From positions 768,001 through 832,000 of the forward strand of contig CM000431.1 in NCBI GenBank assembly GCA_000165345.1: 64,000 bases of DNA, written 5' to 3'. Under the pieces are notes generated by a model that was not told the origin of the DNA, did no database searches, and worked only from the letters and a program-made list of their open reading frames with translations. Shown here in pieces: positions 24,700 through 42,017 of the stretch; position 1 is the first letter of the stretch; every line of letters begins with the position of its first letter. Position numbers and translations under genes: made by a program.

Positions 24700-25833
24700 T
24701 TAAACGAGCTTCTCCATTTCCATTCTAACTTCATGGAAGCAAGAAACAATTGCAGCCAGTTGTATGCTTTCGCTAGCCCCCCTTGAAAGCCTGTACTCGA
24801 TATCTGCAAGGCGCCTCATAAGTAACGGAACAACTTCATCAGGCCAATTTGCTTCCATTGACTTGCTGTAAAGACCATTTACGAAATCTTGGGTAGAATA
24901 TCCGTTCTCATTCTGGGAATTTTGAAGTGCACTAAAGCCACTTGAAAAACTCTCTCTTGAGAGAATTCCAAATATATAATCCAATTCACTCTTTGTGGGT
25001 ATCCCAAGAATTCTGTGAATCATTTCTTCATTAATATATGTGATAAGTCCTTCAATAGATGCCCCATTTAGTTCTCCAGAATCTTTATGTTTTTCAATGT
25101 TTCCGTAATTACTCATGCTGCACGACTGCAATACATTTAAAACTTTCCTCATGTCTCCCCTTGAAGACTTTATGAGCGACTCTTGACCTTCTCGAGTTAT
25201 AAAAATCCTCTCTGACAGAGCAATTTCTGATATTCGATTCCTAATATCCTCAATAGGAAGTGGGGAAAATCTAAACCGTGTGCATCTACTTTGCAATGCA
25301 GGAGTTATTTTATTAACATAGTTGCAAATGATGCAAAATCTAACGTGTTCGGAATAACGCTCCATTATTCTTCTTAGTGCCATTTGAGCTGTGCTTGTCA
25401 TCATATCTGCCTCATCTAGAATAATTAACTTAATATTCTCACACAAGCTTTTATTACAGTCTAAATTTCTTGTGCTTACATCAGACATTTCTATATCTTC
25501 AATATTTGAATTTGTTCCACCTGAGTGATTTAATGTCGTTGATGCACTTTCTGAAAAACTTTTGATTGCATCCCTTACAACATTTATGCCACGGTCGTCT
25601 GATGCGTTGAGTTCCAACACCATCTGATACTTTCTATCTTTGTAAATACATTTGCTAATTGCATGTATAGTTGAAGTCTTTCCAGTTCCAGGAGGTCCAT
25701 GGAATAAAAGATGTGGAAGCTGGCCAGAACTAATAAATTTTTCGATAGTGTTAATTATATCTTTGTGCGACAGCAAGTCCTGTAGTCCTGAAGGCCTATA
25801 CTTTTCAACCCACGGTAATTGAGCTTCCTCCAT
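24700..25833 (-). CDS. RFC3: Replication factor C small subunit (RFC3/RFC5-type AAA+ clamp loader)
   Basis: LPWVEKYRP, Walker A GPPGTGKTS, LELNASDDRGI, Walker B ILDEADMMT, sensor CNYVNKITPALQSRCTRFRF and GDMRKVLNVLQS. There is a low-complexity insert between Walker A and Walker B. Confidence 0.9.
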   Translation of the reverse strand: MEEAQLPWVEKYRPSGLQDLLSHKDIINTIEKFISSGQLPHLLFHGPPGTGKTSTIHAISKCIYKDRKYQMVLELNASDDRGINVVRDAIKSFSESASTTLNHSGGTNSNIEDIEMSDVSTRNLDCNKSLCENIKLIILDEADMMTSTAQMALRRIMERYSEHVRFCIICNYVNKITPALQSRCTRFRFSPLPIEDIRNRISEIALSERIFITREGQESLIKSSRGDMRKVLNVLQSCSMSNYGNIEKHKDSGELNGASIEGLITYINEEMIHRILGIPTKSELDYIFGILSRESFSSGFSALQNSQNENGYSTQDFVNGLYSKSMEANWPDEVVPLLMRRLADIEYRLSRGASESIQLAAIVSCFHEVRMEMEKLV

Positions 25834-26566: not shown

Positions 26567-28687
26567 TTGATTATATATCAAAATAATATAGCTATTATCG
26601 ATCAATTATTGCGTTATAACGCGCATATAGTACTGAATACAAGATCTGCTTACAGAATAATGCATGAAGAACTAAGAATTAGAAACGGCTCTTTAAATGA
26701 ACAAAGGGTAGCGAATATAAATAAAAAAGGGAATTCTGTGTTTTTCACACAGGAGTGCAGTTGTAATAATAGCGAAAATTGTTTTGCTCTGGCTTCTCCT
26801 CATGCGTCTTTTACTTCTATGGCATCATTTGCCCTGTCATCCTCTACTTCAAATTCAATTCAACCTATTGGAAATACTTCTCCTCACAAATGCGAGCAGA
26901 GATGTAATGCTGGAAATGAACATTTGAAAAAACATTGTTGCATTCCATCAACTTCTTTATCATCAACTTCAGTTTCTCTTGGTGAAACTTCTAAGTTAGC
27001 AATTAGTTCCGGAACGAGTAATGGCAAATATAGCATAATAAATAAGCAGATAAACTGCAATATCAGTACAATAATTAATAATAATTTGACAGGTAAACCC
27101 GAAAAAAATGCGCAGAATACGACTCTAAAAGTGGAAAATGGGAGGTATACAAGTAATACTGTTTCAAATTCAAATAAGTCCCATACTAATGGTGTTTGTT
27201 ATTCAAATATTAATGCATTTTCACAAGAAGAAAACGATAAACTCGTAATGCAACAAAGCAGAGATATAGACATAAGTAATGTAAATACCCTGAACCATCC
27301 TAAAGTTACAACTTATGAATGCGAAAATACTTATTCCAGATGTTCTTCAGGTATGTTAAATGGAAATGAGAAAGATATCGTTAATTCATCAAATACAAAC
27401 CCAAATCCTACAACAAATTCATTCTCTGCAATCTCAAAAATCTCAAAGCCTTCAATTTTAGGAAGCAAAGGCCAAATGGTCTCAAAAAATTACTCATTAG
27501 TATACAAACGTTTATATGATTGTCTCGGCCCAGTGATGTTTCCCATAGCTCCATTAAAGGGAATTAAACATCCAAGAGGTGAATTAAAGCTATGGCCAAC
27601 TAGTTACGATAGAGTAATTTCACAGAATTCATCAAAGAGGAAAGTTCACAGATCTTTATGGATTCCTCCAAAAAGCTATGAACACGCATATGTAAATGAT
27701 TTAAATGGCACAGAGACCATTTCTGCATATCCGATGGCATTGAAGTTTGTTGAGGATGGAAATGCGCGCGATGGAAGAAGCATTAAGAGAGAAATAGAGT
27801 GCCACTTATATATATATCAGAGGCTATCACAGCTTCAACAAGATCAGGGCTACGACAACTTGGAGGATGCATGGCCATGCGCAGAGTTAATCGGATATTA
27901 TTTAGATAAGAAGAACCCTGGAAATTCTGTATTAGTAACTAGAAAGCTTTCAGGGCCAGATTTTTTTGACATCATAAGATCTGAACACTCGTCTTCTGCC
28001 AATTCAGTGTATAGCAAGTGCCAAGCTCTTTACGAATATAATAAACTTCAGTGGTGCACACTAGCATTAACAAGAATTGCGCAATATTCAGCACTTGGTA
28101 TTAGGCATAACGATATTAAACCTGACAATATAGTATTGGATTTTTATTACAATAGCACAAATAACGAAAGGCATTTAGACGTTAAAATTATTGATTTAGG
28201 CACTGCCTCCATGCATAGCGCTAAGGATTTCACAGGAGGTACCTCATGGTATGAGAGCCCTGAGCAGAAAATGCTAGAGTACTATACAAAAAAAAGTAGA
28301 GATTTGAAATCAGCAAAGACAGTTGAAATTGGACTTTCTTCTGATTCATGGGGTGCAGGAATTTCAATAGCAGAAGTTTTAATGGGCAGAAGAGTTGTGG
28401 ATAGTATGAAAAGCCCATATGGCCCAGGCCCATTGGAATTTAAAGGAAAAGATGGGTGGCTAATAGAACCTCAAGAGTGGATTGAGTTTGCCAAAATGGC
28501 ATTGGGATTTGATAATTCAAACTGTCCATACAAATATAAAATATGTGAAGAGGCTGCAAAATATGTATTCAATATGCTTGTACAAGTTAATTCAAATAAA
28601 AGAGCTAATATTAAAGATGTAATACAAAAAATGGACTACTTTACTCAAAAGGCATACCAGGCTGTTAAGCAAAAACATCAAACGTGA
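26567..28687 (+). CDS. Atypical protein-kinase-like protein with a long S/N-rich N-terminal region and a C-terminal kinase fold lacking a glycine loop. The track start is a TTG; the likely real ATG is near 26660.
   Basis: Catalytic-loop-like HNDIKPDN, DLG in place of DFG (VKIIDLGTAS), APE-like SPEQ, and a downstream SDSWGAGISIAEVL (subdomain IX-like). No GxGxxG motif is recognisable upstream of the ALKF lysine. Confidence 0.6.
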   Translation: MIIYQNNIAIIDQLLRYNAHIVLNTRSAYRIMHEELRIRNGSLNEQRVANINKKGNSVFFTQECSCNNSENCFALASPHASFTSMASFALSSSTSNSIQPIGNTSPHKCEQRCNAGNEHLKKHCCIPSTSLSSTSVSLGETSKLAISSGTSNGKYSIINKQINCNISTIINNNLTGKPEKNAQNTTLKVENGRYTSNTVSNSNKSHTNGVCYSNINAFSQEENDKLVMQQSRDIDISNVNTLNHPKVTTYECENTYSRCSSGMLNGNEKDIVNSSNTNPNPTTNSFSAISKISKPSILGSKGQMVSKNYSLVYKRLYDCLGPVMFPIAPLKGIKHPRGELKLWPTSYDRVISQNSSKRKVHRSLWIPPKSYEHAYVNDLNGTETISAYPMALKFVEDGNARDGRSIKREIECHLYIYQRLSQLQQDQGYDNLEDAWPCAELIGYYLDKKNPGNSVLVTRKLSGPDFFDIIRSEHSSSANSVYSKCQALYEYNKLQWCTLALTRIAQYSALGIRHNDIKPDNIVLDFYYNSTNNERHLDVKIIDLGTASMHSAKDFTGGTSWYESPEQKMLEYYTKKSRDLKSAKTVEIGLSSDSWGAGISIAEVLMGRRVVDSMKSPYGPGPLEFKGKDGWLIEPQEWIEFAKMALGFDNSNCPYKYKICEEAAKYVFNMLVQVNSNKRANIKDVIQKMDYFTQKAYQAVKQKHQT

Positions 28688-29009: not shown

Positions 29010-30977
29010 TTATGATTCCTGTATCGTTTGTAGCATTGGCCAAATAAATGCCTCCAACTGGTTTGCATACTTCGTATAAATTGTATTTTTTGCATTGTAA
29101 AATCTGCAGTTATCAAACATTCTTTTAAGCTCGCTGCTAAACTCAGATAATGTCTTATATTCTTTATTTTTAGCTTTACGCTTCATAGTTTGGATATCAG
29201 TAGGTTCTTTAATAATCTCATAGTAGTCTGATGCTTCCCCTATGCTAACTGGTTTTCTAAACGGCCATGCATTTTCATGCCTTGATAGGGTATCAAGTAA
29301 CTGCCAAATTTGATCGTTCATAGAGAGGTCAACCTTAGATTGCTCGACAGGATCAATTATCTTTTCTACCCAACCAACCTCTAAAACACCAGGTATATCA
29401 CTGGGCTTTATTTTTTTTGTGTTTATGTTTAAATCATTCTCTGGTTTGGTATCTATAATTGGAGTAAAATCTTCAGCACAAGGGTCATTTTGGAAATTTT
29501 TAGCTGGATCACCATCATTCATTGGTTCAGATATAGTTGATTCAATATTTTTTTGATCACTAGTTAACTCAATATTTAAATCTTTCTTGACCATACTTTC
29601 GTCTCCATTTTCCCATAAATTGATACCTGGATAGACCTTTAAAGGTCTAATAGTATTAATAGCCCTTAACAATGCAGATTTTTGCTCATGGAAAAGATCG
29701 GATAATCTCAAATAATTAATCTCTGGATTAATATAACACTCCATTAAAGTACCACCGTCATAATCTTTAATATATCCAAACCATCTTTCTTTTGGCATAC
29801 TAACCTCTTTTCTGAAACCTTGTTTTCTGAAATAACCCGTGGCAAAGTTATCTGCATATGTTAAAAAGTATTCTATTTTGCTTTTCTTGACATGCTGCTT
29901 TAAATGGTTCATTAATCTTGTACCATAACCTTTAACCTGCTCAGTACTAGTTACAGCTAAAAACGCAATTTCAGCAAATCTTTGCTCGAAGTACGGGCGA
30001 AAACATACTCCACCGATTACTTTTCCTTTCTTCAGCAAACAGAAAGAATAATGGTTTCTGTCAAAAATCAGTCTAACTATATATTCTCTTGGCATTTTCG
30101 GTAATTGCCTTGCGAAAACATTTTTTAATGCAATAAGTTTAACAAGATGTTCTGGCTCTCTATCATTGGTAATACATTCAAATGAAATAATACCCAGAGC
30201 TTCTTCCTTTGCACTACCACTATCTCTATGAAGAAAGCCCAATCCAGTTTCAGACAATAGACTGGACTGTAGAGTTTCATCATCAGAAATATACCTAAGA
30301 TGGTCCCATGCTTGCCTTTTCAAATGATCAATAGATTCTTTGGAAGCGATGCCACATGCTACGCACAATTTAATAGCAAACTTCATGCAAATAGCCTTAC
30401 TTAAGTTGCTTTTTAACGCAAATTTAGTAAATATTCCCGAAGTTTCAATATCATTAAGAATTACTCCAATATTTGTAAGCAATAAGGACTTTAAAAATGA
30501 AAGTTTAAACATTTCACAGACTTTTCTACCTGCAGGGGAATCTCTCTTGAGAAACAGCTTCCAAGAATTGTAGTTATTTTCATAATTTTCATCAGGCAAA
30601 TAGTTCATAACAAAGCTCTTTACACTTGCTCTTTCATCTTTTTTAATAGTTGGAAATGGACCCCGTTCGCGAGCTTCAATACTGAGCCATTGCTGAATAT
30701 TAATAATAGAAAGTACTGCTGAAAATATCTCCTCTAAAGTTACCTTAAAAATTCGGATTAATTCATTATTTAAATCTCCTTGTTCGTTGGATAACTTCAG
30801 GAATTCAACAAAACCAAAGTTGTTACATAATTTTAATAATTTTGGATCGGAGTAATCTCTATATATTCCTTCCAAGTAGTCCTTGTTAATATTTTCTACG
30901 ACTAAGGGCGAAAATTCTTCGAAGATAATTGTGCGGATCCCCCTATCAATGCTGGCATTTGCCTCTTCAATAAACAT
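29010..30977 (-). CDS. GCN5: GCN5-type histone acetyltransferase (GNAT HAT domain plus C-terminal bromodomain) with an N-terminal extension of about 300 aa
   Basis: HAT core IAFLAVTSTEQVKGYGTRLMNHLKQHV. Bromodomain WPFRKPVS...DYYEIIKEPTDIQTMKRKAKNKEYKTLSEFSSELKRMFDNCRFYNAKNTIY. Long non-conserved N-terminus. Confidence 0.9.
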   Translation of the reverse strand: MFIEEANASIDRGIRTIIFEEFSPLVVENINKDYLEGIYRDYSDPKLLKLCNNFGFVEFLKLSNEQGDLNNELIRIFKVTLEEIFSAVLSIINIQQWLSIEARERGPFPTIKKDERASVKSFVMNYLPDENYENNYNSWKLFLKRDSPAGRKVCEMFKLSFLKSLLLTNIGVILNDIETSGIFTKFALKSNLSKAICMKFAIKLCVACGIASKESIDHLKRQAWDHLRYISDDETLQSSLLSETGLGFLHRDSGSAKEEALGIISFECITNDREPEHLVKLIALKNVFARQLPKMPREYIVRLIFDRNHYSFCLLKKGKVIGGVCFRPYFEQRFAEIAFLAVTSTEQVKGYGTRLMNHLKQHVKKSKIEYFLTYADNFATGYFRKQGFRKEVSMPKERWFGYIKDYDGGTLMECYINPEINYLRLSDLFHEQKSALLRAINTIRPLKVYPGINLWENGDESMVKKDLNIELTSDQKNIESTISEPMNDGDPAKNFQNDPCAEDFTPIIDTKPENDLNINTKKIKPSDIPGVLEVGWVEKIIDPVEQSKVDLSMNDQIWQLLDTLSRHENAWPFRKPVSIGEASDYYEIIKEPTDIQTMKRKAKNKEYKTLSEFSSELKRMFDNCRFYNAKNTIYTKYANQLEAFIWPMLQTIQES

Positions 30978-36405: not shown

Positions 36406-37374
36406 GTGTTTGCGAATACTATTCACAAATTCATGCAATCGAAAAAAATAGAATTACATGATACAGACTCGAATGCACCCTTGTTACCATACTTAAGGAG
36501 GCTATTCAATACACTAAATAGAGAAATATGTTTATTCTACCTTCCATTAAATTTACCTTGCATGTACTCAGTTCCTTTTATAGAACAAGAACATTTAATT
36601 AAAAACCTATCAAGCGCTGACAACATTGATATATCTAGTTCAAAAAAAAGCTTTAACAGAAATAACAAGGTAGAGTTAATTAAGAGTCTCTATGTATATA
36701 GACACTCAAAAGAGTTTTGTTATATTGAAAGCTGCATTGATAGTGTGAGAGTTAGTCTTAAGTTCTACTTTAAATGCGAATTTGAAAGAAGATTGTTCAA
36801 TCAGCTAACGATTTTTATGAAGAAGAATTCAGATTATTTGCAATTAGTGAGAAAAAAATCGATTGAAGGATTTGATATTAGCTTTTTAATTACAAACCAC
36901 ATTTTAAATTCATACAACAATAAGATTTGTATAAGTAATAAAAGTAACTATGATGGCCAAATGGGTAAATATGATGTGATTCATTTTATTTTGAAATTTG
37001 TTGTTGATATTGATAGACAAATTCAAGACAAAATGCTTCAATCAACATATTTCTCGAGATATTATATTAGAAAACTACTTCAAGAATTCAATGTTAATGT
37101 TTTATATAAGCAGAATAGCATCAATATTCCTAAACATAAAAAACAATTAGATGAAACAAACAAATCGGAAATAAAAGGAATAGATCCTAACAAAGCTGAA
37201 ATAAGTATCAGTGAGAAAAATAATAATTTATTAGAGACTAAAAAGAGCCTAACATCTACGAAAAATATCAATTCAGGAAGTATAGCAACTCAATTAAATG
37301 ATTCAATAGGCCGAGATGCTATTGTGCTGAAAGCACTGAAAACTAGGAATCGAATAAAAAATTTAATTAACTAA
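36406..37374 (+). CDS. Hypothetical protein (about 320 aa). The track start is a GTG; the first ATG is about 36433.
   Basis: Uninterrupted ORF with a K/N-rich C-terminus. Its stop overlaps the stop of the convergent GCN2-like gene by 4 nt. No domain recognised. Confidence 0.45.
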   Translation: MFANTIHKFMQSKKIELHDTDSNAPLLPYLRRLFNTLNREICLFYLPLNLPCMYSVPFIEQEHLIKNLSSADNIDISSSKKSFNRNNKVELIKSLYVYRHSKEFCYIESCIDSVRVSLKFYFKCEFERRLFNQLTIFMKKNSDYLQLVRKKSIEGFDISFLITNHILNSYNNKICISNKSNYDGQMGKYDVIHFILKFVVDIDRQIQDKMLQSTYFSRYYIRKLLQEFNVNVLYKQNSINIPKHKKQLDETNKSEIKGIDPNKAEISISEKNNNLLETKKSLTSTKNINSGSIATQLNDSIGRDAIVLKALKTRNRIKNLIN

Positions 37375-40300
37375 TCATTCATACAATAAAAATCTATAAG
37401 AAATTGTACTAACCTACATTCATTGTCAAGAATTATTTCCAAATTATTCGAGTTGCTTGAACCTGGGTAATTACTAATAAACTCTTTAGCATAAATAGTC
37501 AAGTTTGAATCAGAAGAAAAACACCATTCTATTTTGTACTTAATTTCTGAATATAAAATTGGATTGTTTTGATTATCAGTCAAGTATGAATTATTCACTA
37601 AATTTGAAAGTGCTAGATTATTTGCTTGATATGGCAAATACGAGGATTTGTTTGAAGAGTTCATTGATACATGTCTTCTATTGTCGCCAAAACTCCCACG
37701 AACTATTTGTACAATCCAGTGCAATAAAGGAAATCTACTCTTTATATGATTTTTCTGCTTTATAGTATCTACATTATTTAAAGAAATATTTCTCTGGCAT
37801 TTTATCCCCTTTAATAACAATAGCTGTCTTAATTTAAAAGACTTAACTTGATACTTGGTATTATTATTTAAAATGAATACATGAATTCCAGAATTTAAAA
37901 GCAATTCACAATTGCTAGTTAAGCCTACATTTACTAAAGGGATGATCATCTTAAACTTTGTGTTTCTGAGGATTTTATATATTATTCTTTCGAGTACTAT
38001 TTCGAATCCTACTGCCGAAATCCTATCATTGTTTTTTATTGAGCTATAATTCTTAAAAAATATTACTTTATTGGTATTGGCACTAATATACCAATTATCG
38101 AACCTTCCTCCTTTGACGAGTAGCTCAACATTTGATTGCTTTAAAGAAGCATACGAGGAATTAATATGGTTCAAACTATACCTATTTTCAAATATTAAAT
38201 CCATTATGCAGCCCACTTTACAAATTGGTATATTTTGTGAACAACTAAATGAAGATTCTGCATTTTGGTTGTTTTGATCACTAGAAGTTTCACCTGAAAA
38301 AATATAGAAAAAAAAACCTGATTCAAAAAAATTATTGTTTGAAAATAATATTGGATCAAAAAATATTTTTGTAATACCCAAATTAGTGTTGTTTAATAAA
38401 TTGTTGAATAAAAATATTCTATATATAACCTTCAGTAAATTAGGAGTAAATAATTCTGGATTTATCAATATTTCATTTTGATTTAGCATTTTTTCTTCAC
38501 TAAAATTGTCTGTTGTTTTAAAGTTCAATGCAAGACTGTTATTATAGCCTTTATTATTTACTAAGTTTATAAAAAGCGGATATCTTGTAACTTTCGCTAA
38601 TTCCTTGAAAAACTCATTTTTGCAAGTGATGATAAATTTTTTCTTTTCTATTTCAAACAAGTTGGAAACTTCATTTGTACCCTTATTAATTATTTCAATA
38701 AAATCATGTATTGAACCCTTGAAATCATTTATGATATATAAAATATATTCTACCACTTTTTCTAAAATTGAAGGGTATGATAATATTTTTAATCCAATGT
38801 AATATTTTAAAATTGGTTCTGGAAGCTCAGATTTAATTATATTTGATCCTTCAATTTCACGATCAAAATTGTAACTGTTTACGAACTCTGCAAGAGAAAT
38901 TAATGTGATTTTTTGTAAAAAATTGAGTAATTTCACTCTTGAAATTCCTATTGGAATTAAATTATGTAACCAAATCTGAATATATTTTGCCTTTTCATAC
39001 TTGATTCCAACCCAACTTTCCAACAATGAAATAAATAGCTGAGAATCTCCCCAAACTAAAATTGGTTGTCCAATGAACCTCTCATAAGGCTTAAGCGTAT
39101 CTAATGCTGTAATTATAATTTCAATATCATAATAAATTACAATATTATAATACCACATTGGAGAAATGTTTAAATTGCCACTAATATTTTGAACTTCAAT
39201 AGGAAATTCAATGAAATTGCTAATGCTATCAAATTCTTCAATAACACGATCGTTTATTTTTACTACAATCTCGTATGTTCCAAAAAGCAATTCTTTAGGA
39301 TGGCCGTGAGTCGTTGCGTATTTATTATTATTCGTATCCAAATTAATTAAATTATCCTGAGTATAAATTGAATCTATATAAAATCTTTTAATTACAGCTC
39401 CCATTCTTAATCCATGCCCATCCCCTAGTTGTGCAGACATATTTTTTAAAATATTATTGCATAGTACAAGAGGATTTCCGCTTCTATCTAGAAGTATAAC
39501 TCTTAAGGGGTTTTCGGAAATGGCTATGCTCTCGCTTAACTCACTATCGTCTTTGCTATTTTGTGAATTTTTCTTAGAGAAGTGCTTTCTCCCTTTTTTA
39601 TGTTTTTGTTGGGACTCAATTTCACATCTTTCATTAGTAGATAAAATTAAATAATCGAGATCAAAGTTAACTTTTCTTTCATTGCAGTTGATCTCATTCT
39701 GAGTTTTCTCATCAATAATTAAATTCTTATTGGTACTTTTTGGAAACAAAATGGGAATACCAACTTCAGTTGCACCATGTGTTTTGAAAATATTCTTTAT
39801 ATAAGAAATTAATTCGGATCTTTTCTTATAATAATGATGGTGATTTATTAATATATTATTTGATTGGAATGGGTAGATCCTATACCCAGAATTGTTTAGT
39901 TGAAAGGAGAAATATGAAAAGGATGCATTGCTTCGATAGAGTTGTTTGTCCAATGATCTTTTTTCAATTGAAAATAATGTAGAGAGTATTTGAATATTCT
40001 CGTGAATATATGGGTTCCTGCTAATAATATCGCATATCTTTTGAGAACTATATCCTTTTGCGCCATTTAAGTCAATATCGGTTGCACCTATAACTAGGTC
40101 TTCTGAATTCAAATAAAATTTCGTTTGTTTCAAAATCCATTCATTGTAAAGAAGCTGATAAGATGTAGGCCTTTCTTCTGGATTGTGGCTTAATAATGAC
40201 TTAATAAGCGCTCGAACTTTATTGGGAATATTACAATTGTTGGGAATAGTTCCATATTTGGTTAATTGAGTAAGTATCTGCACTCTTTCCATTCCTGTAT

Positions 40301-42017
40301 TAAAAGGAGGATGGTACATTTCAAATAAAATAACCCCAAGACTAAACATATCTGCGCTTTGATTATAAAAATTGCCTTTACATTGTTCAGGGGCCATATA
40401 AAACATCGTTCCCACTCCTGATGAAAGTTCATTATTTGCTTTTGAGCCATCAATTGAATTGCTTGAATAAGAAAATCTATCGAAGATATTAACAAATGTT
40501 GTGAGCCCAAAATCTCCTAATTTAACCAAGTACAAATTTTCGTCTTGTATTTCATTAGAATTTTCATCTAATTGTAAAAAAATATTTGAAGGTTTTAAGT
40601 CACGATGGATTACTCTCTTTCCATGTAAATATGAAAGTCCTTGAACGATCTGATAGAAAATATGCCAAATAAGCTTGTGGTTATTGCAAACTAATCCTTT
40701 ATCAATTGCATTTTGAAGAGAGTAACCAGAACAATATTCCATTTGAATAAATAAATAAATAGACTTTTTTTTCTCTCCATGAAATGATCCTTGGCTTGGC
40801 CCTTTATTTTTGTGTTCTGCAAGAGTAGAGAGATCATTTGATATATATTGAGCCGTCATTGCAGAGAATTGAGAAATTAATTCAGGAGCAAATGAGCTAT
40901 AAATATTTCCATCAAAAAAATCATTATTGATACATCTAGAATTACCATCAACAGATTCTTGAACCCAAGCATGGTAATACCTAACTATTTTTTCATGATT
41001 TAAGCAAGCAAGCATTGCAGCCTCATTTATTAACATGTGGTTTTCATGTAAATTTTTTGAGCCAAGTGGTATTTGTTTAATTGCATAAGTGCACTTCCCT
41101 CCAAAATGTTCTCGAGCCATAAATACAGAGCCAAATCCACCATACCCTAATATTTTAATAACCTCGAAGTTGTCTTCAAATCTATTTGAAGAAAAAATAT
41201 AATGACTATCTTCTTCATGATTACTCTCATTTAACGAATTTAATTTACATTCATAATCTCTAAGATATTCTTTGTCATTCTCAGCATTATTTCCTAAAGC
41301 ATTTTTAGGAACTATTTGAGTTTGATGTTTAGTTTCCTCAAATTTATTTGCACAATCCAAAATGCCCTTTATAATGTTTATTATTTGAGTGAGTCGGTAT
41401 TCAATTTGCGGATTTTTAAGAAATTTATCAATATTTGTTTTTATCTTTTCTTTAAAACTTTTGCTCATATTATAATGGGAAAGGTAACAAATATCTGGTG
41501 GAATCTTTGGGTATTGATTGTTGATTGAAATCTCTAATTCAAGTCCTTTAAATTGTTTTTCAACATTGTTTGGAGTGCAAGAGTTTGATAAATTCAAGTT
41601 ATTAAAAGAATTTAATACATTTCTTGAGCTTGGATGATCTTCTGGTGATAGTGGTCTGCTATCCAAAATTTTATTGTTAATATGGTCATCTAAAACAAAA
41701 CGTGTATTATTTATACTAATATTCCCAATCAAAACAGTCAGTAACAAATCTCTATTTGATATGGTAGTCTTTATATTTGATTCAGAGTTTGAAAAAAGGG
41801 ATGATGAGCTGTCAGTCACTTCGTCTTCGCCTTGATCATCTTCAAATAAAATCAAACTCCCACTGCTCCCATCAATGTTTGATAAGGAATTCAGTCCGCA
41901 AAACCTTGTACTTTCTGTTGAAATAAATCCAAAATCTAAAATGTGAACTATTGCATGCTCATCTTTAGAAATTATTTCCAGCTCTTCAGCTAGGCTGATA
42001 ATCGAATCTTTACTCAT
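37371..42017 (-). CDS. GCN2-like eIF2-alpha kinase (1548 aa): kinase domain followed by a HisRS-like domain
   Basis: Kinase motifs GYGGFGSVF, AIKQI, HRDLKPSNIFL (the eIF2alpha-kinase-type catalytic loop), DFGL and MFYMAPE, with a long kinase insert. Downstream, ELISYIKNIFKTHGATEVGIPILFPKS resembles HisRS motif 1. Very large single exon. Confidence 0.8.
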   Translation of the reverse strand: MSKDSIISLAEELEIISKDEHAIVHILDFGFISTESTRFCGLNSLSNIDGSSGSLILFEDDQGEDEVTDSSSSLFSNSESNIKTTISNRDLLLTVLIGNISINNTRFVLDDHINNKILDSRPLSPEDHPSSRNVLNSFNNLNLSNSCTPNNVEKQFKGLELEISINNQYPKIPPDICYLSHYNMSKSFKEKIKTNIDKFLKNPQIEYRLTQIINIIKGILDCANKFEETKHQTQIVPKNALGNNAENDKEYLRDYECKLNSLNESNHEEDSHYIFSSNRFEDNFEVIKILGYGGFGSVFMAREHFGGKCTYAIKQIPLGSKNLHENHMLINEAAMLACLNHEKIVRYYHAWVQESVDGNSRCINNDFFDGNIYSSFAPELISQFSAMTAQYISNDLSTLAEHKNKGPSQGSFHGEKKKSIYLFIQMEYCSGYSLQNAIDKGLVCNNHKLIWHIFYQIVQGLSYLHGKRVIHRDLKPSNIFLQLDENSNEIQDENLYLVKLGDFGLTTFVNIFDRFSYSSNSIDGSKANNELSSGVGTMFYMAPEQCKGNFYNQSADMFSLGVILFEMYHPPFNTGMERVQILTQLTKYGTIPNNCNIPNKVRALIKSLLSHNPEERPTSYQLLYNEWILKQTKFYLNSEDLVIGATDIDLNGAKGYSSQKICDIISRNPYIHENIQILSTLFSIEKRSLDKQLYRSNASFSYFSFQLNNSGYRIYPFQSNNILINHHHYYKKRSELISYIKNIFKTHGATEVGIPILFPKSTNKNLIIDEKTQNEINCNERKVNFDLDYLILSTNERCEIESQQKHKKGRKHFSKKNSQNSKDDSELSESIAISENPLRVILLDRSGNPLVLCNNILKNMSAQLGDGHGLRMGAVIKRFYIDSIYTQDNLINLDTNNNKYATTHGHPKELLFGTYEIVVKINDRVIEEFDSISNFIEFPIEVQNISGNLNISPMWYYNIVIYYDIEIIITALDTLKPYERFIGQPILVWGDSQLFISLLESWVGIKYEKAKYIQIWLHNLIPIGISRVKLLNFLQKITLISLAEFVNSYNFDREIEGSNIIKSELPEPILKYYIGLKILSYPSILEKVVEYILYIINDFKGSIHDFIEIINKGTNEVSNLFEIEKKKFIITCKNEFFKELAKVTRYPLFINLVNNKGYNNSLALNFKTTDNFSEEKMLNQNEILINPELFTPNLLKVIYRIFLFNNLLNNTNLGITKIFFDPILFSNNNFFESGFFFYIFSGETSSDQNNQNAESSFSCSQNIPICKVGCIMDLIFENRYSLNHINSSYASLKQSNVELLVKGGRFDNWYISANTNKVIFFKNYSSIKNNDRISAVGFEIVLERIIYKILRNTKFKMIIPLVNVGLTSNCELLLNSGIHVFILNNNTKYQVKSFKLRQLLLLKGIKCQRNISLNNVDTIKQKNHIKSRFPLLHWIVQIVRGSFGDNRRHVSMNSSNKSSYLPYQANNLALSNLVNNSYLTDNQNNPILYSEIKYKIEWCFSSDSNLTIYAKEFISNYPGSSNSNNLEIILDNECRLVQFLIDFYCMND

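Follow-up and report, generated by a model that had tools for sequence, protein, structure and literature searches.

Cryptosporidium parvum cgd3_3180, a probable member of an orphan family of apicomplexan protein kinases without a glycine-rich loop

The cgd3_3180 gene and its surroundings

In this study, a 64,000-nt stretch of DNA (the window), about 30% GC and with tightly packed, intron-free genes, was analysed around an ORF at 26567-28687 of the forward strand. This ORF was verified as a mechanical ORF opening at TTG. The TTG start is a by-product of the bacterial ORF rule, and the real coding sequence begins at the ATG at position 26660. The protein translated from 26660-28687 was 100% identical (675/675 residues) to EAK89018.1 of C. 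parvum Iowa II (UniProt Q5CUE3), the product of cgd3_3180, which carries the database annotation 'Ser/Thr protein kinase'. The supplement of the C. parvum kinome paper (Artz 2011, PMC3227725) prints a cgd3_3180 sequence (YEHAYVNDLNGTETISAYPMALKFVEDGNARDGR) that agrees with the window protein. That paper filed the gene as 'OPK-1', and its Table S1 gives TGME49_035370 (now TGME49_235370) as the Toxoplasma orthologue and leaves the P. falciparum column blank. Because all annotated Cryptosporidium orthologues start with MHEE, as does the protein read from the ATG at 26660 (MHEELRIR), the in-frame leader upstream of it is probably 5' UTR. The gene and its neighbours are as follows.

26567..26659, forward strand: in-frame leader of the TTG ORF, probably 5' UTR and non-coding
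26660..28687, forward strand: coding sequence of cgd3_3180, 675 aa plus stop, introns not required
24700-25833, reverse strand: RFC small subunit, neighbour of cgd3_3180
29010-30977, reverse strand: GCN5-type acetyltransferase with bromodomain, neighbour of cgd3_3180
37371-42017, reverse strand: 1548-aa ORF whose protein-kinase domain is split (PF00069, E = 1.5e-49)

The 1548-aa ORF lies five genes downstream and fits what is reported for the eIF2α-kinase orthologue cgd3_3230 (PMC3227725), in keeping with the cgd3_3180 numbering. Next to it, an ORF at 36406-37374 (forward strand) matched ARPC4, the 20 kDa subunit of the Arp2/3 complex (PF05856, E = 6e-49), and its end has a 4-nt overlap with the 3' end of the convergent kinase ORF. 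Arp2/3 subunits are generally regarded as absent from Apicomplexa.

The gene is not new, being annotated, included in the 2011 kinome and represented by its orthologue in a Toxoplasma screen. A search of the literature with the identifiers of the gene and its orthologue returned only the 2011 kinome paper, a 2021 preprint of the Toxoplasma kinome screen and an unrelated SNP table.

Domain organization and predicted fold of cgd3_3180

An AlphaFold2 model of the kinase domain was built on an alignment of 32 orthologues and had a mean pLDDT of 92.2 and a pTM of 0.91. A full-length model was made as well; it repeated the domain model and left residues 1-274 unstructured (pLDDT approximately 29). 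Features located from the models and alignments, all on the forward strand, are listed below with residues numbered from the ATG.

26660..27481: disordered S/N/T-rich N-terminus, aa 1-274 (from pLDDT, composition and alignment), conserved in Cryptosporidium only, with small Cys patches
27482..27613: N-terminal extension of the kinase domain, aa ~275-318, YxRLYDxxGPVxF...ELRLWP, adding three extra β-strands to the N-lobe (pLDDT 90-96; present in all orthologues)
27614..27664: β1-turn-β2 hairpin, aa 319-335, VISQNSSKRKVHRSLWI, with the SQNSSKR turn at the GxGxxG position (DSSP strands 319-322 and 327-335)
27665..27715: Cryptosporidium-specific β2-β3 insert, aa 336-352 (pLDDT <50 at 342-349), missing from coccidia, piroplasms and gregarines
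27737..27748: β3 A-L-K-F with the ATP-anchoring lysine K362 (A360 and K362 invariant; paired with PKA AMK, K72, by hhalign at mact 0.05)
27764..27847: long αC helix of the model, aa 369-396, DGRSIKREIECH (E378 invariant, E380 nearly so)
27932..27967: β5/hinge, VLVTRKLSGPDF, with Thr427 at the gatekeeper position and D434 at the ribose-contact position (confident hhalign stretch to PKA M120-E127)
28106..28129: catalytic loop HNDIKPDN, non-RD, with D485, K487 and N490 (invariant; Pfam and PDB alignments)
28193..28264: activation segment DLG...GGTSWYESPE, aa 512-535 (D512, L513, G514, T525-T528 and W530-E535 invariant)
28343..28360: subdomain IX DSWGAG in αF (D562, W564 and G567 invariant)

The initial annotation had described a C-terminal kinase part of 330 aa preceded by about 330 aa of low complexity, and both lengths needed revision. 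Counted from the true ATG, the low-complexity region is 274 aa long (S 16.7%, N 14.5%, T 8%), and the folded domain comprises about 400 aa (276-675), including some 45 aa of conserved N-terminal extension, the strands of which were modelled at 277-280, 302-304 and 307-311. The disordered region contains Cys-containing patches (QECSC, CF, HCCIPS and YEC) that are kept among Cryptosporidium species and not beyond; these could be acylation or metal sites.

The elements of the domain are predicted to follow the canonical kinase order (β1-β2-β3-αC-β4-β5-αD-αE...αF-αI). In the model, β1 (319-322) and β2 (327-335) are followed by a variable loop, β3 (353-364, containing K362) and αC (369-396, containing E378); after αE come the catalytic loop, an elongated β7-β8 hairpin, the DLG and activation segment, and then αF to αI. 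The bilobal eukaryotic protein kinase (ePK) fold is thus present, with β1-β5 and αC forming the N-lobe and αD-αI the C-lobe. E378 is probably the salt-bridge partner of K362. The hinge reads R-K-L, and R428, K429, L430, G432, P433 and D434 were invariant in the family alignment. Foldseek searches with the domain model gave matches at E values of approximately 1e-12, the best being canonical ePKs.

All motifs quoted in the initial annotation were found, at residues 360-363 (ALKF), 483-490 (HNDIKPDN), 512-514 (DLG), 533-536 (SPEQ) and 562-567 (DSWGAG), and its reading of the domain as non-RD, with DLG for DFG and SPE for APE, was borne out in the sequence.

[quoted passage not shown]

No match to GxGxx[GAS] was found by a regular-expression search of the whole cgd3_3180 protein. 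Pfam PF00069 matched with 40.8 bits (cutoff 31.7; E = 2.2e-10) in the C-lobe only, at profile positions 116-259. The family profile was also compared by hhalign with PKA and with a small alignment of canonical kinases at mact 0.35, at mact 0.05 and globally. The C-lobe was paired with high confidence, and β3 (ALK with PKA AMK) and αC were paired at relaxed settings only; no counterpart of the Gly loop was found in either comparison at any setting. A relaxed hhalign placement of the PKA loop on the variable, Cryptosporidium-only insert had zero confidence and was rejected. In the alignment of Artz 2011 (PMC3227725), the β2-β3 insert (aa 336-352) was likewise forced under the Gly-loop columns. 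Since a search for a hidden Gly loop, or for a best match to a standard family such as CMGC or CAMK, yielded neither, the earlier observation that the glycine-rich loop is missing, for which regular expression, Pfam and hhalign all lacked a counterpart, is confirmed.

Despite the absence of GxGxxG, the cgd3_3180 model retains a β1-β2 hairpin. Its loop motif, SQNSSKR, was matched in 71 of 75 family members, and two of the four exceptions are truncated sequences. Residues Q322, N323, R327 and V329 were invariant across the orthologue alignment, and the β1-β2 turn was free of glycine in all members but that of Cardiosporidium, which has a single G. No account of a family lacking the Gly loop or carrying an invariant SQNSSKR turn was found for these kinases in the searchable literature.

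Distribution of the family

An exhaustive HMMER search of 1.84 billion representative proteins returned only 50 sequences at E ≤ 1e-3, 28 of them below 1e-30. For a kinase domain this number is very small, and by this sequence measure the family is an isolated orphan. The named members are all apicomplexans in the broad sense, in agreement with the lineage restriction expected in the initial annotation. They included 1) Cryptosporidium; 2) the coccidia Toxoplasma, Neospora, Hammondia, Besnoitia, Cystoisospora, Eimeria and Cyclospora; 3) the piroplasms Theileria and Babesia; 4) the gregarines Gregarina, Porospora, Blabericola, Selenidium, Polyplicarium and Ancora; and 5) Cardiosporidium. No Plasmodium orthologue was found in two word-indexed searches and the exhaustive HMMER search, and the composition of the weak hits was not Plasmodium-like; the P. 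falciparum column left blank in Artz 2011 points the same way.

Several sequences differed in detail. The Theileria and Babesia orthologues P0041, P0043 and P0050 have a piroplasm-specific insert, RLWWN(K/R)(D/E)EYW, ahead of αG. P0061 from the gregarine Ancora sagittata is a divergent paralogue, 41% identical across the C-lobe, in which RHNDIKPSN and DLG are retained and the SQNSSKR turn is absent. Four distant relatives from eukaryotic metagenome and SRA contigs, P0064, P0066, P0067 (locus L001) and P0068, read RHNDLCPxNF, with the catalytic Lys lost, lack the DxG Asp and share a C-terminal W-x-x-x-P-x-x-W motif. They appear to form a degenerate sister group of pseudokinases.

Conservation of the catalytic residues

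The catalytic residues were invariant in 24-32 orthologues from Cryptosporidium, coccidia, piroplasms and gregarines. The invariant set comprised K362, E378, H483, N484, D485, K487, N490, D512, L513, G514, S533-P534-E535, D562 and R648; the GT of the P+1 region was likewise invariant from Cryptosporidium to the coccidia, piroplasms and gregarines. Over the domain, C. parvum had 83% identity to C. muris and 63% to Besnoitia. By sequence comparison, such identity is unusually high for an apicomplexan kinase and as expected of a working enzyme.

Taken together, cgd3_3180 is read here as an apicomplexan kinase of an orphan family, orthologous to TGGT1_235370, in which the catalytic residues are kept and the phosphates would be held by the SQNSSKR turn (probability approximately 0.62). 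An active non-RD Ser/Thr kinase is favoured because the catalytic residues are invariant and because two other apicomplexan kinase families, represented by WNG1 and FIKK, are active without the Gly triad. PfFIKK8 and CpFIKK are both catalytically active without it (PMC4576209). WNG1 is active as well, and its R312 and R313, near the missing loop, form a cap and contribute to catalysis (PMC6442604).

The putative mechanism is as follows. Sequence and model together show a full two-lobed fold with every catalytic residue kept, namely the β3 Lys, the αC Glu, the Asp of H-N-D, the Lys and Asn of the catalytic loop and the Asp of D-L-G. The Lys of the catalytic loop and the GT of the P+1 loop point to Ser/Thr specificity, and the non-RD HND loop suggests independence from activation-loop phosphorylation. 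Instead of a glycine-loop backbone clamping the ATP phosphates, the S-Q-N-S-S-K-R turn may hold them, the Ser, Asn and Gln providing hydrogen bonds and the Lys and Arg charges, by analogy with the basic 'Walker-A-like cap' that stands in place of the Gly loop in WNG1. The side chains of the turn would thus probably have taken over phosphate binding in an active enzyme.

Pseudokinases normally have lost some catalytic residues, and loss of the Gly-loop glycines is common among them. The initial annotation considered cgd3_3180 a possible divergent pseudokinase. On this reading the fold would persist in a scaffolding or allosteric role and, having no glycine loop, the domain could neither bind nor turn over ATP. 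Such a reading draws on the lack of turn glycine throughout the family, except for the one G in Cardiosporidium, on an N-lobe that neither Pfam nor hhalign recognised, and on the distant relatives P0064 and P0066-68, which are without the catalytic Lys and DxG Asp and indicate that the lineage can degenerate. Against it, K362, E378, H483, D485, K487, N490, D512 and G514 do not vary in Cryptosporidium, coccidia, piroplasms and gregarines, that is, across the phylum; the β3 Lys, HxD Asp and DxG Asp are all kept, whereas the pseudokinase class is defined by loss of at least one of them or by a shown inability to bind ATP; the SQNSSKR loop is itself invariant and rich in phosphate-binding side chains; and WNG1 and FIKK8 work without the Gly triad. 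A pseudokinase is accordingly considered unlikely.

Comparison with known kinase families

The closest likeness is to TGGT1_235370 (TGME49_235370) of Toxoplasma, with approximately 62% identity over the whole 400-aa domain and the same SQNSSKR loop and catalytic motifs. The two proteins differ in the disordered N-terminus, which is unrelated in length and sequence, and in an extra 13-aa β2-β3 insert in Cryptosporidium.

The second alternative is a divergent FIKK kinase, or a member of a standard group such as CMGC/LAMMER, in which the Gly loop has simply decayed. The likeness to FIKK is considerable, since both are confined to Apicomplexa and have a variable N-terminus and a C-terminal kinase domain with an N-terminal extension (obligatory in FIKK), no Gly triad, a non-RD catalytic loop and altered DFG and APE (PMC4576209), a layout that is not sufficient for membership. 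A comparison with FIKK, as proposed in the initial annotation, separated the two: C. parvum has a separate FIKK, cgd5_4390 (CpFIKK), and the motifs here are ALKF, HND and SPE in place of FIKK, HLD and PPE, with no detectable sequence match. The 50 sequences found by exhaustive HMMER at E ≤ 1e-3 included no FIKK-like and no Plasmodium-like sequence. FIKK occurs in Plasmodium, where no member of the present family was found. As for the standard groups, LAMMER/CLK kinases were the best PDB sequence matches, and these were weak (E = 1e-4 to 1.6e-3). The canonical ePKs nearest by structure or sequence were RIPK/IRAK, CSK, CLK/LAMMER and PRP4, at 13-23% identity with none standing out, and all of these carry the GxGxxG that cgd3_3180 lacks. 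Decay of the loop is also at odds with its fixation as one specific sequence. On balance, a divergent FIKK or a decayed standard kinase is improbable. A PDB-based family assignment was tried with the single sequence and with the family profile; it gave marginal matches to LAMMER, ULK2 and twitchin only, in the region of the catalytic loop and DxG, and was rejected.

The third alternative, that the kinase is secreted or acts in the secretory pathway like WNG/ROP35 or FAM20, was suggested in the initial annotation by the missing Gly loop and fits an apicomplexan parasite source, and it is highly improbable. The WNG kinases share with the cgd3_3180 family the ePK fold in Apicomplexa, the absence of the glycine-rich loop, the retention of the other catalytic motifs and the presence of basic residues near the phosphate site. 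In WNG kinases, however, β1 and the hairpin are lost, with a helix in their place, and an acidic residue replaces the Gly of DFG (DF-E; PMC6442604), whereas in the cgd3_3180 family the β1 strand and the β1-β2 hairpin are predicted and D512-L513-G514 is invariant. WNG kinases are secreted into the parasitophorous vacuole and limited to coccidia, whereas the present family extends to Cryptosporidium, piroplasms, gregarines and Cardiosporidium. As already stated in the initial annotation, cgd3_3180 has no signal peptide; neither this nor a transmembrane segment was detected, the highest 19-residue Kyte-Doolittle mean being 1.09. The FAM20-like assignment was ruled out by the lack of a signal peptide together with the canonical ePKs as best fold matches. 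The cytosolic location of the Toxoplasma orthologue, with its cell-division phenotype, argues further against secretion (see below).

Localization and possible cellular role

TGME49_235370 shares a 90% cluster with the Hammondia match. In the Toxoplasma kinome screen (Smith et al., bioRxiv 10.1101/2021.09.23.461611), TGGT1_235370 had a CRISPR score of -3.15, being fitness-conferring. The protein was 'Cytosolic with puncta', its depletion gave a 'Cell Division I' phenotype and blocked monolayer lysis, and both localization and phenotype resembled those of TgMAPK2 (bioRxiv 10.1101/2021.09.23.461611). Because TGGT1_235370 is cytosolic with puncta and has a division phenotype, a role in daughter-cell formation, rather than secretion, is indicated. 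By extension from this orthologue, the kinase would be cytosolic, would be recruited to paired puncta and would be needed for cell division and the formation of daughter cells. These functional data come from a Toxoplasma screen, which is neither a Cryptosporidium nor a dedicated study, and from them we infer a corresponding role for cgd3_3180 in Cryptosporidium. In the Cryptosporidium CRISPR-screen paper, cgd3_3180 was not among the genes covered.

Implications

Conserved families without the Gly loop each show another way of holding ATP. In the cgd3_3180 family, the loop is replaced by a specific, invariant sequence and not by a deletion, and the question is therefore directly testable by mutagenesis. 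The result is a sharpened lead on a known gene, the cellular role of which has been glimpsed in the Toxoplasma screen only.

A broader proposal, which we hold at slightly less than even odds, is that the SQNSSKR-loop kinases join WNG and FIKK as a third independent class of active ePKs that lack a glycine loop, the ATP phosphates being held by a fixed turn of Ser, Asn, Lys and Arg. On this proposal, the family would date back to the apicomplexan ancestor, would have been lost in Plasmodium and would be essential for daughter-cell formation, and its ATP pocket, with a Thr gatekeeper, an R-K-L hinge and a non-glycine lid, would be unlike that of any host kinase.

There is no fully effective drug against Cryptosporidium. 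The kinase is parasite-specific, very strongly conserved and fitness-conferring in Toxoplasma, and, with a non-glycine lid, its ATP site could be targeted selectively relative to human kinases. If the SQNSSKR-loop kinases are indeed a third class without the glycine loop, this pocket would be a selective drug target in both Cryptosporidium and Toxoplasma.
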